Source: Thermodesulfobacteriota bacterium (GTDB taxonomy: Bacteria > Desulfobacterota > Desulfomonilia > UBA1062). Taken from it: a stretch of DNA of 64,000 nucleotides. Location of the stretch: contig DAITOA010000001.1 in the NCBI GenBank assembly GCA_036834365.1, positions 88,926 through 152,925 of the forward strand, given 5' to 3'. The notes beneath the pieces are model-generated. The model saw only the letters and a list, made by a program, of their open reading frames with translations. It was not told the DNA's origin and ran no database searches. The translations under genes and the position numbers were made by a program. Position 1 is the stretch's first letter. The number at the start of each line of letters is the position of its first letter. Positions 8,599 to 52,715 of the stretch are shown in pieces.

Positions 8599-8673
8599 TG
8601 GTGGGCCGCATAGGATTTGAACCTATGACTTCTACCGTGTGAAGGTAGCGCTCTCCCCCTGAGCTAGCGGCCC
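8599..8673 (-). tRNA. tRNA-Val (anticodon CAC)
   Basis: Reverse complement reads GGGCCGC TAGCTCAGGGGGAGAGCGCTACCTTCACACGGTAGAAGTCATAGGTTCAAATCCTATGCGGCCCACCA. The acceptor stem is a perfect 7 bp (GGGCCGC/GCGGCCC), the anticodon loop is TTCACAC, the T-arm is GGTTCAAATCC, and the 3' CCA is encoded. Confidence 0.95.
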
Positions 8674-23840: not shown

Positions 23841-23934
23841 CTGGACACCTCCATGGATTTTTCCCTTGGAGTCTCCACCCGGGTACGCGGGTGTAGTCCG
23901 TACTGCGGATAGGTCTTCTGACTCACGGTCTTTT

Positions 23935-24060
23935 CAGCAGCCTTGCCTTCCCGCTTGCGCAGTGGCATTGAAAGGTCTGCCATGTCCGTTTACAGCGGCG
24001 TCCCCGTCCCGGATTTACACCGGGTTCCCTTGAATCCGCAGCAGGGTGAGGTTTTGATAA
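23935..24060 (-). promoter_or_regulatory. Cobalamin (AdoCbl) riboswitch in the 5' leader of the TonB-dependent receptor gene
   Basis: Minus strand reads ..AAGGGAACCCGGTGTAAATCCGGGACGGGGACGCCGCTGTAAACGG..AATGCCACTGCGCAAGCGGGAAGGCAAGG. This matches the conserved cobalamin-riboswitch core (GGGAA..GGTG.AAATCC..CCGC.ACTGTAA) and the B12 box GCCACTG followed by GGGAAGGC. Confidence 0.85.

Positions 24061-28137: not shown

Positions 28138-28141
<4 letters not shown>
27545..28141 (-). CDS. tmk: Thymidylate kinase
   Basis: 'MIITFEGGEGAGKTT' P-loop and the dTMP kinase fold. Overlaps the ppdK stop by 4 bp. Confidence 0.9.
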
Positions 28142-30810
<2,669 letters not shown>

Positions 30811-30964
30811 GATATTCTCCCTCTTTCAGATACTGGTGATCGGGTTAAAGCCTGCAAACGATAGTATACATGGGGAGTTCTGTTCAAGTGAAAAATGGCA
30901 CCCCGTGCCTGTTTGTGCAGTAGGTGAAAACGTCCGGGTTTCGACAACGGGGCGAAAGACAGGT

Positions 30965-31034
30965 CTGCTCAACCCATGCATCTCGCGAACCCCACCTTTT
31001 TTAATGTCATCCGCGAGATGCATGGGTTGAGCAG
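30965..31034. repeat. Palindromic terminator-like element, copy A (23-bp perfect stem, 24-nt loop)
   Basis: CTGCTCAACCCATGCATCTCGCG / loop aaccccaccttttttaatgtcatc / CGCGAGATGCATGGGTTGAGCAG. Shares stem termini (CTGCTCA...CATCTCGCG) with copy B at 50585. Confidence 0.9.
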
Positions 31035-31069
31035 GTCAAGTTTCTGGTCCGGAGAGTCGTCTCGAGCCG

Positions 31070-32410
31070 TCACTGATTGAGGCCCAGAATCGATCGTGCA
31101 GCGATGATGCCGGAGCAGCTTGCCTGGATGAGGCCCCGGGTGATGCCGGCACCGTCGCCTATGACGTAGAGCCCGTCCATCTGGGAGCCAAGACTGCGGT
31201 CGAGTCTGATGCGATTGGAGTAGAACTTGACCTCGATGCCGTACAGGAGGGTATGGGCCGAGTTGACCCCGGGGGCGATACGGTCGAGACCGGAGAGCAT
31301 CTCCACGATGTCGGTGAGGATCCGGTACGGCAGGCAGTAGCTGAGGTCTCCCGGTGTGGCCTGCTTCAGGGTTGACCGGGTAGTGCATTTCTGGAGCCTG
31401 CCCTGGGTGGTCCGTCTGCCGCTCAGCAGGTCGCCAAGCCGCTGCACGATGACGCCCTTGCCCAGCATGTTGGCGAGCCTGGCCACCGATTCCCCGTAGC
31501 CGATCGGGTCGTCGAAGGGCTCGGTGAAGTTCGCGCTCACCAGCAGGGCGAAGTTGGTGTTCTCCGTGCGCTTGTTGGCCCAGGAATGGCCGTTGACCGT
31601 GACGATGTCACCCAGGGTCTCGATGACCACCTCGCCGTAGGGGTTCATGCAGAAGGTCCGCACCTTGTCGTCGAAGGTGCGCGAGTAGTGGATGTATTTG
31701 GTCTCGTAGGCCTTGCTGGTGAGGTGCTCCATGACCGCGGCGGGAAGCTCCACCCTCACGCCGAGGTCCACCGGGTTCGGATGGGTCTCGAGGCCGAGCT
31801 TCTTAGCCTGTCCGGACATCCATGAGGAGCCCACACGGCCCGGTGCCGCGATGATGCGAGGCGCTTGGATGACGGTCCCGTCCGACAGCTCCACCCCGGT
31901 GACGGCCCCGGCCCTGTGGAGGATCTCCTTTGCCATGGTGTTGAAGATCATGCGCACCCTGCCGTCGAGCTCATGCCGGAGCCTCTCGAGGATGACCAGG
32001 AGGTTCTCGGTGCCGATGTGTCGCACCCTGGTGGGCACATAGACGAGGCCTGACAGCCGCGCCTGGGCGGTCATGGCCTCGGCGTCGTCGCTGTCAACGG
32101 TGAACAGGTCTCCCGACGGGGCATATCCCGTATAGAGGCCGTCCACGTGCTCCAGGAGCCGGAGCAGCTCTTCGTCGGCCACCAGGCTCGACAGCTGGCC
32201 GCCCACATCGGTGGAGATGGTGAGCTTGCCGTCGCTGTATGCCCCGGCACCTCCCCATCCGACGAGCATCTCCCTGCCTGTCCTGGATCGGGCGTGGATA
32301 TCGTTGCCCTGCTCGATGATGACGATTTCCATGGACGGGTCGTTCAAGGCAAGCTCACGGGCTGCGAAGATGCCGGCAGGTCCTGCGCCGATGATGACGA
32401 CGTCAGCCAT
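31070..32410 (-). CDS. FAD-dependent oxidoreductase (COG2509-like uncharacterised FAD-dependent dehydrogenase)
   Basis: Rossmann 'MADVVIIGAGPAGIFAARELA' dinucleotide-binding motif. 446 aa. Confidence 0.6.
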   Translation of the reverse strand: MADVVIIGAGPAGIFAARELALNDPSMEIVIIEQGNDIHARSRTGREMLVGWGGAGAYSDGKLTISTDVGGQLSSLVADEELLRLLEHVDGLYTGYAPSGDLFTVDSDDAEAMTAQARLSGLVYVPTRVRHIGTENLLVILERLRHELDGRVRMIFNTMAKEILHRAGAVTGVELSDGTVIQAPRIIAAPGRVGSSWMSGQAKKLGLETHPNPVDLGVRVELPAAVMEHLTSKAYETKYIHYSRTFDDKVRTFCMNPYGEVVIETLGDIVTVNGHSWANKRTENTNFALLVSANFTEPFDDPIGYGESVARLANMLGKGVIVQRLGDLLSGRRTTQGRLQKCTTRSTLKQATPGDLSYCLPYRILTDIVEMLSGLDRIAPGVNSAHTLLYGIEVKFYSNRIRLDRSLGSQMDGLYVIGDGAGITRGLIQASCSGIIAARSILGLNQ

Positions 32411-39181: not shown

Positions 39182-39370
39182 GTCTTTCTATGAGAAGGAA
39201 GGGACGATTTCAAGGGTCCTCTCATCGAGCCGCCCGGGTAATGAACCTGGGAGGATATGAATGTGAACGGGAGGCTTCTCCCTGAGGGCCTTTCGGGTTC
39301 GGGACAAGGGGAAGGCACCCCCGGCTGAGTCAAAGAATCAGGAAAAGTTCAGGGGATGCAGGACTCTCCG

Positions 39371-39619
39371 TCACTCATCCGGGAGAAGCTTCCTGACCTT
39401 TTCCAGGAGCTCATGGATCTCTTTCTCGCGGGTCTTCAGGTAATCGCGGTAATCGAACGACATGCGTGCATGGTGGATCTCGATGCGTGTGGTGAGCTCC
39501 TCCCTCTTCAGGAGCATCTTGATGAGAGCCAGCTCTTCCTTGGAAGTCTCCAGGTTCATCATATCGGGCTCCTTTCCTTGGTATACCCTGCTTCGCCGGG
39601 ACGCAGGGCAATCCTCCAC
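39371..39619 (-). CDS. Hypothetical small charged helical protein
   Basis: 82-aa ORF (probably starts at the internal MMNLETSKEE..) divergent from the histidine kinase gene. No recognisable family, and an overlapping plus-strand ORF is equally possible. Confidence 0.25.
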   Translation of the reverse strand: MEDCPASRRSRVYQGKEPDMMNLETSKEELALIKMLLKREELTTRIEIHHARMSFDYRDYLKTREKEIHELLEKVRKLLPDE

Positions 39620-49693: not shown

Positions 49694-50527
49694 ATGAACA
49701 ACGCCTTGAGCATCGATGTAGAGGAGTATTTCCAGATCCATGTGCTCTCCGGTATCATCCGTCAGGATCAGTGGAATCTCATGCCTTCGTTCGTGGAGGA
49801 CAATACCCTGAGGATCCTCGATCTTCTCGATAAGCACGGCATCAAGGCGACCTTTTTCTGCCTCGGGTGGATCGCGGAGCGTCATGGAGACCTCATCCGT
49901 CGGATGCATGAGAAGGGCCACGAGATCGCCTGCCACGGGTTCGCCCACCAGGTCATCTACGGGCAGGACCCTGCACGGTTCAAGGAAGACGTGACCAGGG
50001 CCAAGCAGGTCCTGGAAGACGCCACGGGCGTCCCGGTCATCGGCTACCGGGCACCCACCTACTCCATCACGGACAAGACCCTGTGGGCCATTAAGATCCT
50101 TGAGGATGCGGGATTCCTCTACGACTCGAGCATCTTTCCCATCTACCATGACAACTACGGCATCCCGGATGCCCCCCGGTTCCCCCACCGGCTCCAGGGG
50201 AGCACCCTGGTGGAGTTCCCCATCTCCACGCTCAAGATCGGACCCGTGAACATCCCCGTCTCAGGAGGGGGGTATTTCCGGCTGCTGCCCTACACACTCA
50301 CGAGGCTGGGGCTGAAGGAGGTCATGTCCGGCGGGAGGCCCTTCGTCTTCTACATCCATCCCTGGGAACTCAATCCCGATACCCCGCGGGTACCGGGCAT
50401 GCCAGTATTATCACGGTTCCGGACTTACATCGGCATCCGTTCCGCCAGGGCCAGGTTCGAGCGGCTCATCTCGGATTTCCGATTCGCCCCGATCCGGGAT
50501 GTCCTTGCTGAGCTCGGGCTCCTGTGA
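49694..50527 (+). CDS. Polysaccharide deacetylase family protein (DUF3473 type, resembling the PEP-CTERM/exosortase-locus subfamily)
   Basis: 'MNNALSIDVEEYFQ..' N-terminus and NodB-like 'HGIKATFFCLGWIAERHGDLIRRMHEKGHEIACHGFAHQ', with a DUF3473-like C-terminal region. Start chosen at the ATG at 49694. Confidence 0.6.
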   Translation: MNNALSIDVEEYFQIHVLSGIIRQDQWNLMPSFVEDNTLRILDLLDKHGIKATFFCLGWIAERHGDLIRRMHEKGHEIACHGFAHQVIYGQDPARFKEDVTRAKQVLEDATGVPVIGYRAPTYSITDKTLWAIKILEDAGFLYDSSIFPIYHDNYGIPDAPRFPHRLQGSTLVEFPISTLKIGPVNIPVSGGGYFRLLPYTLTRLGLKEVMSGGRPFVFYIHPWELNPDTPRVPGMPVLSRFRTYIGIRSARARFERLISDFRFAPIRDVLAELGLL

Positions 50528-50584
50528 GGAGGGTCCGGATACGTCATTCTTGACATCTTGTTTCGAAGCAAAGAAAAGACAGAA

Positions 50585-50659
50585 CCTGCTCAGGGAAGTA
50601 CATCTCGCGTCATTCGTTGAAAATCACGCTGTTTCGCGAGATGTACTTCCCTGAGCAGG
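50585..50659. repeat. Palindromic terminator-like element, copy B (25-bp perfect stem, 25-nt loop)
   Basis: CCTGCTCAGGGAAGTACATCTCGCG / loop tcattcgttgaaaatcacgctgttt / CGCGAGATGTACTTCCCTGAGCAGG. Lies between convergent genes with T-rich flanks on both sides. Confidence 0.9.
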
Positions 50660-50726
50660 CCATGTTTTCTCTTGTACAGCGTCCCAAGCAGAAGCTCAGA
50701 TGACTTGGCGCCGTGTCCATCTCCCT

Positions 50727-52715
50727 TCAGACACTCTTGAGGGCCTCGCGGGCCTCATCCCTGGTCTCGTAGATGTGCGGGGCGAGCCTCCGCTTGTTCA
50801 GCGCCTCCCCCAGCTTCATCCTGAGGAAGGTGTTGGTGGTGTAGCGGGTCACGCCGGAATAGAACTTCTTCACCACCCTGCGCACCATGGCCGTATAGTC
50901 GTCCACGAGCTCGGGGAGTATGTCGAAGTTGTCGTAGTTCACGATGGTATACACCTTCTTCCCCAGCGGCGAGCAGATGCCGGTGACCATGTCCTCGATG
51001 GCCTTGATGTCTCTGCGGCTCCTGATCTTGTGTCCCTCGAAGTTCACGAAGAAGAGGTTCTCCTCCGCATCATAGGTGAGCCGTTCCGCCAGGCTCAGCT
51101 CGGTCATGTCGTCCCGCAGGGACATGGGCGCCGTCCGGAAGATGCGCTCGTCCATGGTGCGGGGCGTTCCCCTGATGACCGGGGTGAAGTCCATGCGTGA
51201 GAGGACATCGCGTTCGATGTCGATGCCCGGAGCGACCTCGATGAGCTCGAGGCCGTCCCTTCCCAGGGAGAACACGCACCGCTCGGTGATGTAGAAGACC
51301 GGCTGGTTCTTCATCAGGGCATAGCGCCCGCTGAAGGTGACCTGCTCCACCTGGTGGAGGAACTTCCTCCCGGTGCCTTCCTGGTCGATGACGAGCCCCC
51401 GGTCTTTGACCGAGACCCTGAGCCCGCCCGCGGTGAAGGTCCCCGTGAAGACGACCTTCCTGGCGTTCTGGCTGATGTTGATGAACCCCCCGCAGCCGGC
51501 GAGCCGCTCTCCGAACCTGCTCACGTTGGTGTTGCCTTCCCGGTCCGCCTGGGCCAGCCCCAGGAAGCAGCAGTCCAGCCCGCCGCCGTCGTAGAAGTCG
51601 AACTGGTTCGGCTGGTCGATGATGGCCTCGGGGTTTGTGGAGGCCCCGAAGCTTAAGCCGCCGGCAGGCATGCCCCCGATGGTGCCGGGCTCTGCGGTCA
51701 GGGTGATGTACTCCAGAATCCGCTCCTCGTTGGCCACCCTGGCCACCCCTTCGGGCATGCCGATGCCCAGGTTGATGATGCTGTTGCCCTTGAGCTCCAT
51801 GGCGGCCCTGCGGGCGATGATCTTGCGCGCCCCCATCTCCATGGGAGGCAGCGACTGCATGGGTATCTTGACCTCGGCGCTGTAGGCCGGGTTCGACCGC
51901 TCGGCGAACGTCGTCCAGTGGTTCTCGGGCCGGGAGACCACCACGCAGTCCACCAGGATGCCCGGGATTCTGACCTGACGTGCACTGAGGGTCCCTCTCT
52001 CGGCGACACGCTCCACCTGTGCGATGACGAAGCCTCCCGAGTTTTTGGCCGCCATGGCCATGGACAGCGTCTCGATGGTGAGCGCCTCCTTCTCCATGGT
52101 GATGTTGCCGTCGGTATCGGCGGTGGTGCCCCGGATAACGGCCACGTTGATGGGGAAGGTCCTGTAGGCGAGATACTCAGTCCCGTCGAAGGAGACGAGC
52201 TCCACCAGGTCCTCGGTGGTGACCTCGTTCACCTTGCCCCCGCCGAAACGGGGATCGATGTAGGTGTACAGGCCCACGGTGGTGATGGTCCGGGGCTTGT
52301 GTGCCGCGATGTCCCGGAACATGTGGGAGATCACGCCCTGGGGGAGGTTGTAGGCCTCGATCCTGTTCTCCATGGCAAGCCTGCCCAGCTTCGGGGCAAG
52401 ACCCCAGTGGCCTCCCACGACCCGTTTCACCAGTCCCTCGTGGGCCAGGTGGTTGAGTCCACGATCCTTGCCGTCGCCCTGCCCTGCGGCATAGACCAGG
52501 GCAAGGTTCCTCGGCCTGCCCGTGGCAAGGAAGTGCTCCTCCAGGCTTGACAGGATCTCCTCGGGGACGCCGATGCCCACGAACCCTCCGGTAGCCACCG
52601 TGTCGCCGTCATGGATGGCCTGGACCGCCTCCTGGGCGGATACGACCTTGCCTCTGCGCATCCGCGAGGGCGGCCAGGTGGAGAGCATGGGGTGCAACGA
52701 TCCGCGTTTCGCCAT
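50727..52715 (-). CDS. Family I CoA-transferase with fused alpha/beta subunits (acyl-CoA:acetate/3-ketoacid CoA-transferase-like)
   Basis: 662 aa. '[31 protein letters not shown]' (subunit A-like) followed by a subunit B-like region. Confidence 0.65.

Follow-up and report, generated by a model that had tools for sequence, protein, structure and literature searches.

To our knowledge, no mobile or selfish DNA of bacteria has been studied less than the short palindromic repeats, and nearly all that is known about them comes from Proteobacteria and a few pathogens. In REP, each unit of about 20-40 nt is a short, imperfect palindrome by itself, and the GTAG-type tetranucleotide at the 5′ end of REP is the motif that RAYT recognises and cleaves. 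REPINs are REP doublets that form hairpins and are mobilised by RAYT transposases in Pseudomonas fluorescens SBW25 and in other bacteria (PMC3116915, PMC3337134). They have two inverted conserved regions and a spacer of kept length that forms the hairpin, and compensatory changes are common in them (PMC3116915). In addition, there are the Correia repeat-enclosed elements (CREE/NEMIS) of Neisseria and the bacterial MITEs ERIC, RUP and BOX (PMC2649163, PMC2229807, PMC10969869). For the Correia elements, RNase III processing has been shown (PMC2649163).

In this study, we analysed a palindromic repeat family in an uncultured Desulfomonilia lineage. The family is a member of no named family and was previously unlisted, and it works like a REPIN or a MITE.

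Two palindromic elements in the window

The window, that is, the whole 64-kb stretch of DNA that was analysed, matches contig DAOPEO010000004.1 of the MAG GCA_035397145.1, an uncultured Desulfomonilia from anaerobic digesters. It includes two elements, as follows:

30938..31046, minus strand: copy A, whole element, 109 nt (limits from the similarity of four copies and from the flanking CCGGAC repeat)
30965..31034: hairpin core of copy A, arms 30965-30987 and 31012-31034 (23 bp, perfect), loop 30988-31011
50562..50669, minus strand: copy B, whole element, about 108-110 nt
50585..50659: hairpin core of copy B, arms 50585-50609 and 50635-50659 (25 bp, perfect), loop 50610-50634 (25 nt)

The hairpin of copy A consists of the arm CTGCTCAACCCATGCATCTCGCG, a 24-nt loop and the arm CGCGAGATGCATGGGTTGAGCAG, which are exact complements over 23 bp. 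Meanwhile, copy B has the arm CCTGCTCAGGGAAGTACATCTCGCG, a 25-nt loop and an exact complement, which together make a 25-bp stem. Both arms of the two copies can be written as CTGCTCA-N7/8-CATCTCGCG; the middle of the stem differs between the copies and its pairing is kept. The sequence is thus as the original prediction had described it, with perfect stems of 23 bp (A) and 25 bp (B), common outer and inner ends and unlike middles. On the minus strand, copy A begins with CAGAAAC and finishes with GTCGAAAC, and copy B begins with GAAAAC and finishes with GCTTCGAA(AC).

Copies A and B are the two longest perfect inverted repeats of the window. We found no other perfect hairpin of at least 12 bp with a loop of at most 60 nt in the 64 kb; the original prediction had called them much longer and more perfect than the ordinary terminators of the window. 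Furthermore, the pattern CTGCTCA-N5-12-CATCTCGCG had four matches in the window, one per arm, and the expected number was 0 (100 shuffles). The folding z-scores of both copies were −8 to −12 against shuffled sequence on either strand. Other CCTGCTCA 8-mers of the window were considered as family members and rejected; all of them lie within coding sequence as Leu-Leu codons and are unrelated. Both copies are identical or near-identical in at least six independent metagenome assemblies (JGI, ENA, NCBI, Logan), and thus they are not assembly artefacts.

Copy A is located 36 nt past the stop codon of the gene for a FAD-dependent oxidoreductase (31070-32410, minus strand) and 155 nt ahead of the start of ppdK (28138-30810, minus strand). 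Copy B is located between two convergent genes, one coding for a CoA-transferase (50727-52715, minus strand) and the other for a polysaccharide deacetylase/DUF3473 protein (plus strand, ending at 50527). The neighbours of both copies are housekeeping genes in conserved synteny, not cassettes. In addition, no transposase, RAYT, integrase or Y1 transposase gene was present among the genes called in the window, and no transposase, RAYT or integrase gene in about 43 kb of other loci read from the same genome.

Further copies in the same genome

An exact-pattern scan was performed against 185,579 species genomes, a set in which the species of the window evidently had no match. It gave six matches, none of them with an extended stem; these are chance matches, and no other carrier was found in the set. 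This leaves two readings, a very narrow family or boxes that drift. The same pattern had five matches in metagenome contigs, namely two true relatives (L016 and L019), two chance matches and one artefact. The artefact (L018, positions 1-104) is a perfect palindrome at the start of a 1.2-kb soil contig; its fit to the pattern is a chance one, and it most likely arose by fold-back in the assembly. It should be noted that the metagenome collection missed the window's own copies in samples known to hold them. Thus, the collection is incomplete and its negatives are weak.

The copy in L016 (also in L036) reads CCTGCTCAATCCATGCATCTCGCG, followed by a 26-nt loop and a complement with one A.C mismatch. 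It is located between the SRP RNA gene (ffs) and dnaX, 52 nt ahead of the dnaX start. The copy in L019 (also in L042) reads CCTGCTCAACCGGTGCATCTCGCG, with a 25-nt loop and a perfect complement, and is located between a gene for CoA-disulfide reductase and two hypothetical genes in a convergent arrangement. Both loci belong to the organism of the window, the uncultured Desulfomonilia MAG. Contig DAOPEO010000050.1, which carries the L016 locus, and the contig of the window are part of one MAG (GCA_035397145.1), and the locus was found in the window's samples (3300010350, ERZ27264001, 3300009772 and 3300025702). The L019 locus occurs in the same samples as the window, and in ERZ795057 its coverage is 13.3x, compared with 14.0x for the window's contig. 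The tetranucleotide composition of the two loci also agrees with that of the window, although this measure does not discriminate from close relatives.

Both loci are non-homologous to the loci of copies A and B. Two more intact copies at non-homologous sites of the same organism support the core of the original prediction, a dispersed family and not two unrelated terminators. Moreover, it had named as its weak point the case of only two copies without covariation beyond chance; what we found is four copies with eight pairs changed on both sides. In total, there are four intact and at least three partial copies in about 107 kb of the genome, two of the intact ones having been found by targeted search. 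The rough copy density in this genome is one per 35-50 kb.

A covariance model (R1) and HMMs of the half-elements were run on the window, 8 kb beyond its left end, 19 kb around dnaX and 9 kb more around L019. No further intact copy was found in these approximately 107 kb, only the half copies of L019. A weak R1 match at L016 336-458 was rejected as an element and is the SRP RNA. We also observed an inverted repeat at 39270-39393 of the window, with 16-nt arms (88% complementary) that are 92 nt apart; it is a weak R1 match (E = 0.025) and has none of the family boxes. In IMG/VR, the full pattern had no match and a single arm had 22 one-armed chance matches. Searching Rfam at a permissive threshold gave generic eukaryotic miRNA-precursor matches only, far below gathering scores. 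Finally, BlastN against 72,556 plasmids and 50,697 phage records returned nothing similar.

Structure of the unit and covariation of the stem

The four copies were aligned in a common orientation, which is the minus strand for both window copies. The alignment gave a unit of about 108-111 nt that is asymmetric and longer than the hairpin. It starts with the 5′ flank [C/G]AGAAAC.TGGC. The stem of 23-25 bp includes the invariant outer box CCTGCTCA, a variable paired middle of 7-8 bp and the invariant inner box CATCTCGCG, and the 3′ arm mirrors the 5′ arm. The loops of the four copies are 24-26 nt long and have no motif in common. The 3′ flank is longer than the 5′ flank and reads TGTCTTTC, about 9-10 nt and (T)CGAAAC. 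A common T-rich flank on the minus strand had already been noted for copies A and B; it is real and longer than was claimed, with AGAAAC.TGGC on the left and TGTCTTTC, 9-10 nt and TCGAAAC on the right.

In the four-sequence alignment, 93.9% of the cells pair, compared with 26-47% after a shift of the partner by 1-3 columns. Eight stem pairs are changed on both sides, and the observed value was reached in 0 of 500 shuffles, so that the earlier statement that the stem halves co-vary to keep the pairing is borne out. The four core stems (23-25 bp each) include no G.U pair and a single A.C mismatch, that of the L016 copy. This mismatch is fixed in 6/6 strain contigs, and because it falls at a position where copies A and L019 differ, it looks like an intermediate that is not yet compensated. 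In the flank extension, there are 10 G.U pairs on the model strand and 6 on the other, a strand asymmetry that is not decisive and is biased by the way the structure was derived.

It has been reported that template switching between the arms of inverted repeats homogenises the arms without selection (PMC8604942, PMC5941160, PMC7202029). Thus, covariation alone is no proof of selection on the structure. Since the core stems are free of G.U pairs, both strands fold equally well, and this points to arms that are probably maintained at the DNA level rather than by selection at the RNA level. Replication-strand bias was also considered, but the sign of the GC skew on the strand of the element differs between loci and gives it no support.

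Meanwhile, the strain contigs showed where copy A varies. Two strain SNPs (30995 and 31005) are both in its loop, and they are the sole variable sites of the 259-nt spacer in six strain contigs. Two of the 106 variable sites in about 55 kb thus fall within 24 nt, where about 0.05 would be expected. This polymorphism fits an unpaired loop that is unconstrained or damage-prone, and the loop may be a mutational hot spot.

Comparison with REPINs, MITEs and other described systems

The four copies share with REPINs two inverted conserved regions, a spacer of kept length within a hairpin, and compensatory changes. The likeness extends to the palindromic extragenic unit of about 100 nt with conserved ends, in which the spacer keeps its length and pairing rather than its sequence and compensatory changes occur often, and to the occurrence in clusters with decayed singlets or half copies, vertical inheritance and restriction to a lineage. 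However, the arm of the present unit is no palindrome in its own right: when folded, the four 24-25-nt arms did not outperform shuffled sequence (−0.1 to −1.1 kcal/mol, z-scores 0.1 to 1.1), and GTAG was found in no arm of the four copies. Other differences from REPINs are the unpaired central loop of 24-26 nt, the conserved inner box at the top of the stem, the low observed copy density and the host, which belongs to Desulfobacterota. Furthermore, RAYT systems have a single-copy Y1 gene flanked by repeats, whereas no RAYT gene was seen in the approximately 107 kb read here. REP copies are extragenic and number tens to hundreds, compared with the four intact and at least three partial copies in about 107 kb in our case. 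The original prediction of a REP-like or MITE-like repeat therefore stands as far as a dispersed structured family with presence/absence is meant; a strict REP it is not, given arms that are not palindromes and lack GTAG.

With MITEs, the unit shares a small size (108-111 nt, where MITEs are under about 500 bp), the lack of an ORF, and presence or absence at orthologous sites of related genomes. MITEs have terminal inverted repeats, whereas those of the present unit are long but subterminal, and its outermost ends ([C/G]AGAAAC and TCGAAAC) are not complementary. Like CREE and other bacterial MITEs, the copies are small non-coding intergenic insertions, present or absent between related genomes, whose inverted repeats fold into long RNA hairpins if co-transcribed. 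By analogy, they might affect their neighbours by termination, RNase III processing or promoter creation. However, there is no sequence similarity to these elements, the outermost ends are not inverted repeats, and no IHF site or promoter motif was recognised in our copies. In addition, the candidate duplication is 6 bp (or 4 bp) here instead of TA, and no parent insertion sequence is known.

The folded-strand architecture, the two conserved boxes per arm and the variable middle with kept pairing are also reminiscent of integron attC sites. The attC core sites are R″ (RYYYAAC) and R′ (GTTRRRY), and extrahelical bases are needed for the choice of strand. Copies A and L019 fit this core consensus (GCTCAAC, GTTGAGC), and it is broken by copies B (GCTCAGG) and L016 (GCTCAAT). 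Unlike attC sites, the stems have no extrahelical bases, and there is neither a cassette array nor an intI gene nearby. Finally, bidirectional intrinsic terminators resemble the copies in having a hairpin that is A-rich on its 5′ side, U-rich on its 3′ side and located between convergent genes or past a gene. They differ in size and in the U tract: here, the usual lengths are exceeded two- to fourfold by the stem and three- to eightfold by the loop, and the U tract is interrupted. Moreover, our family has identical box sequence, 16 nt in all, at unrelated loci.

Empty sites, insertion and decay

The synteny from the FAD-dependent oxidoreductase gene to ppdK is kept in three relatives, whose oxidoreductases are 89%, 82% and 82% identical at the amino acid level. 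Their spacers are 142, 188 and 119 nt long, respectively, compared with 259 nt in the window, and the hairpin is absent from the orthologous spacer in 3/3 relatives compared. If 109 nt (30938-31046) and one CCGGAC (together 115 nt) are taken out of locus A, 144 nt remain, and the closest relative (89%) has 142 nt. The excised locus aligns with that of the closest relative almost without gaps (5 gap columns). The direct repeats that flank the two window copies are as follows:

31047..31052, minus strand: candidate target-site duplication (TSD) of copy A, left, CCGGAC
30932..30937, minus strand: candidate TSD of copy A, right, CCGGAC
50670..50675, minus strand: candidate TSD of copy B, left, ACAAGA (same relative position as in copy A; alone not significant)
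50556..50561, minus strand: candidate TSD of copy B, right, ACAAGA

These repeats suggest a putative target-site duplication at copies A and B, and the length match of the empty site at locus A is in support of it. No matching direct repeat was found around the L016 and L019 copies. A 6-mer direct repeat occurs somewhere in such flanks by chance in about 30-37% of shuffles; with repeats at A and B only and a chance rate of this size, target-site duplication is not established. A 7-mer direct repeat around the L016 copy was rejected as a duplication, its right copy lying within sequence homologous to the dnaX leader of the relatives.

The L016 locus also has a counterpart without the element. 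The ffs-dnaX spacer is 220 nt long with the element in the species of the window, compared with 64 nt in a relative with an 83% identical DnaX. In this relative, the spacer lacks the element and has an ordinary small terminator instead (CTTTTCCCG...CGGGAAAAG-TCTTTT). The contigs L047 and L048 encode an identical DnaX protein and have quite different ffs-dnaX spacers; thus, the turnover of this spacer is fast. The gene order at L016 125-458 and L048 330-668 is a tadA-like deaminase gene, two tRNA-Ser genes, the SRP RNA gene and dnaX.

At L019 (6764-7066), the intact copy is ringed by three partial copies:

L019 6833-6860: degenerate left half
L019 7029-7040: right end
L019 6764-6788: right-flank relic of 25 nt

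The flank complementarities of this nest are interleaved, the left flank of one copy pairing with the right flank of the other, and simple nesting gives no explanation for it. At this CoA-disulfide reductase locus, an 86% relative has only the right-flank relic, at the orthologous place. From the partial copies and this relic, it follows that the family predates the species, and that it decays and takes new insertions close to its own relics. The same life history has been described for REPINs and MITEs (PMC3116915; PMC10969869).

Sequence comparison thus shows that copies were inserted between genes at several unrelated genomic sites in one uncultured Desulfomonilia species, after or during the divergence of the species from its relatives. 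No current mobility was seen; every copy is fixed in the strains, whose identity exceeds 99.8%, and copy B is identical in five strain contigs. In addition, several metagenome contigs (the ends of L012, L014 and L025) stop inside or just after one hairpin arm. The elements seem to break the assemblies of the host organism. Such breaks of metagenome contigs at the hairpins affect MAG assembly for the host lineage.

Relation to terminators and transcripts

An intrinsic terminator has a short G+C-rich stem of about 5-14 bp, a loop of 3-8 nt and a U tract directly 3′ of the stem. The stems of 23-25 bp and loops of 24-26 nt are far outside this range, and a consensus terminator scan called neither of the window copies. 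The U-rich 3′ tails are interrupted (ACCUGUCUUUCG in copy A and GUUCUGUCUUUUCUUUG in copy B), and the U tract starts 4-6 nt past the perfect stem. Copies A and B are not canonical intrinsic terminators. Nevertheless, the 5′ flank is A-rich and the 3′ flank U-rich, so that the transcript of either strand has a hairpin and then a U-rich run. At locus B, the copy is the only strong or terminator-like hairpin in the 199-nt spacer between the convergent genes. At locus A, there is a further small hairpin:

30897..30909, minus strand: small terminator-like hairpin GGCAC-GGG-GTGCC with ATTTTT after it, immediately ahead of the conserved promoter region of ppdK

This hairpin is 28 nt downstream of the end of element A and 55 nt past its stem. 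The relatives without the element have kept the T run and the promoter next to it but not the stem of this hairpin. In the consensus scan, no promoter-like site turned up inside the copies or directly upstream of them; the sole promoter call near copy A is downstream of it and matches the ppdK promoter. Meanwhile, about 110 nt upstream of ppdK (30811-30925) are strongly conserved in relatives with 82-89% protein identity, with the invariant blocks GCCATTTTTC, CTTGAACAG, TATACTATCGTTTGC and TATCTGA followed by GAGGGAGA. The region comprises a promoter and a conserved leader and is possibly regulatory.

With respect to transcription, two copies, A and L016, are informative and both in sense, each lying downstream of a gene. 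The other two (B and L019) are between convergent genes, where orientation is uninformative. As copies directly follow genes and are in sense with them, their transcription into long hairpin RNAs is probable. A perfect RNA duplex of 23-25 bp is a good substrate of RNase III. A terminator or RNA-processing effect of the copies is plausible, but it would be secondary.

Origin of the family and alternative explanations

We propose, as the rather probable explanation, that the copies form a lineage-restricted, non-autonomous, MITE/REPIN-like palindromic repeat family whose arms are kept perfect at the DNA level. Such a family would spread via an enzyme that acts in trans and recognises the hairpin as a folded single strand by means of the two conserved boxes. 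The arms would be kept complementary at the DNA level, either one being copied from the other or both being homogenised by template switching. In addition, long hairpin RNAs from the copies might cause pausing or termination of transcription in both directions, or RNase III might cleave them. A bolder form of this proposal, which we hold to be unlikely, is that Desulfobacterota have a REPIN-like system whose architecture is of a new type and which is served by a putative single-strand-specific transposase or recombinase that is probably single-copy. It would have a single long hairpin, two protein-binding boxes per arm and a free loop of 24-26 nt. The proposed fold-back regeneration of one arm in each round would account for stems that are perfect within copies though the copies differ.

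The copies could also be RNA elements of the host, that is, long bidirectional terminators or 3′-stabilising hairpins under selection for RNA structure that spread by occasional duplication. We regard this as doubtful. It agrees with the position of all four copies downstream of a gene in sense orientation (two of them between convergent genes), with the A-rich and U-rich flanks that give a hairpin and then a U-rich run on either strand, with the lack of another terminator-like hairpin in the spacer of locus B, and with the ordinary terminator that the 83% relative has at the same place upstream of dnaX. However, orientation is informative for two of these copies only, and locus A has its own small hairpin and T run 28 nt past the end of the element. 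The sizes of stem and loop are outside the terminator range, the U tract is interrupted and 4-6 nt off, and the scan calls neither window copy. Furthermore, core stems without G.U pairs are unexpected under selection at the RNA level, and the conserved boxes of 7 and 9 nt and the asymmetric flanks are unneeded for termination. Independent small-RNA genes, or regulatory hairpins processed by RNase III with copy-specific functions in the loops, would likewise act at the RNA level, and they are highly improbable. The constant loop length (24-26 nt) with free loop sequence, the strain polymorphism concentrated in the loop of copy A, and a perfect duplex of 23-25 bp that suits RNase III are what they would predict; but unconstrained sequence would equally show free variation of the loop, the loops have no common motif, Rfam gives generic miRNA-hairpin noise only, and the consensus scan shows no promoter-like site inside the copies or directly ahead of them.

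Perfect Watson-Crick pairing suits a structure that acts at the DNA level, and so it is also in line with folded single-stranded sites of recombination or transposition, similar to attC or to the ends of IS200/IS605. The boxes would then bind a protein and the 7-8-bp middle would be the spacer of strand exchange, which agrees with the bipartite box-spacer-box stem and with a spacer in which only the pairing is conserved. Copies A and L019 also happen to match the attC core consensus. We consider such sites very unlikely here, because copies B and L016 break this consensus, the stems are without extrahelical bases, the neighbours are syntenic housekeeping genes, and the window is without an integrase or Y1 transposase gene. 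As for chance similarity or an assembly artefact, assemblers can create palindromes at contig ends, as in L018, and several contigs break inside the hairpins. However, the same internal sequences occur in the six or more independent assemblies and the pattern expectation in shuffles is zero, by which this reading is refuted and has next to no probability left. The copies make up a clean low-copy family in an uncultured Desulfomonilia lineage of syntrophic type from anaerobic digesters, for which empty sites in close relatives and decayed relics allow comparison. It is a tractable case for the questions of how such elements spread, whether perfect arms are maintained via selection, template switching or fold-back copying, and whether operon boundaries and 3′ ends are rewired by the insertions, for example, ahead of ppdK and dnaX.

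Other features of the region

A cobalamin riboswitch (Rfam RF00174, 91 bits) was found at 23891-24054 on the minus strand of the window. The sole tRNA gene of the window is tRNA-Val(CAC) at 8599-8673, also on the minus strand. In addition, a perfect 16-bp hairpin with an 11-nt loop (GTCCTGGTCCCAGGCA...TGCCTGGGACCAGGAC) is present at L033 307-349, about 9.7 kb beyond the left end of the window. It is located between two convergent genes, and its sequence is unrelated to the repeat family.
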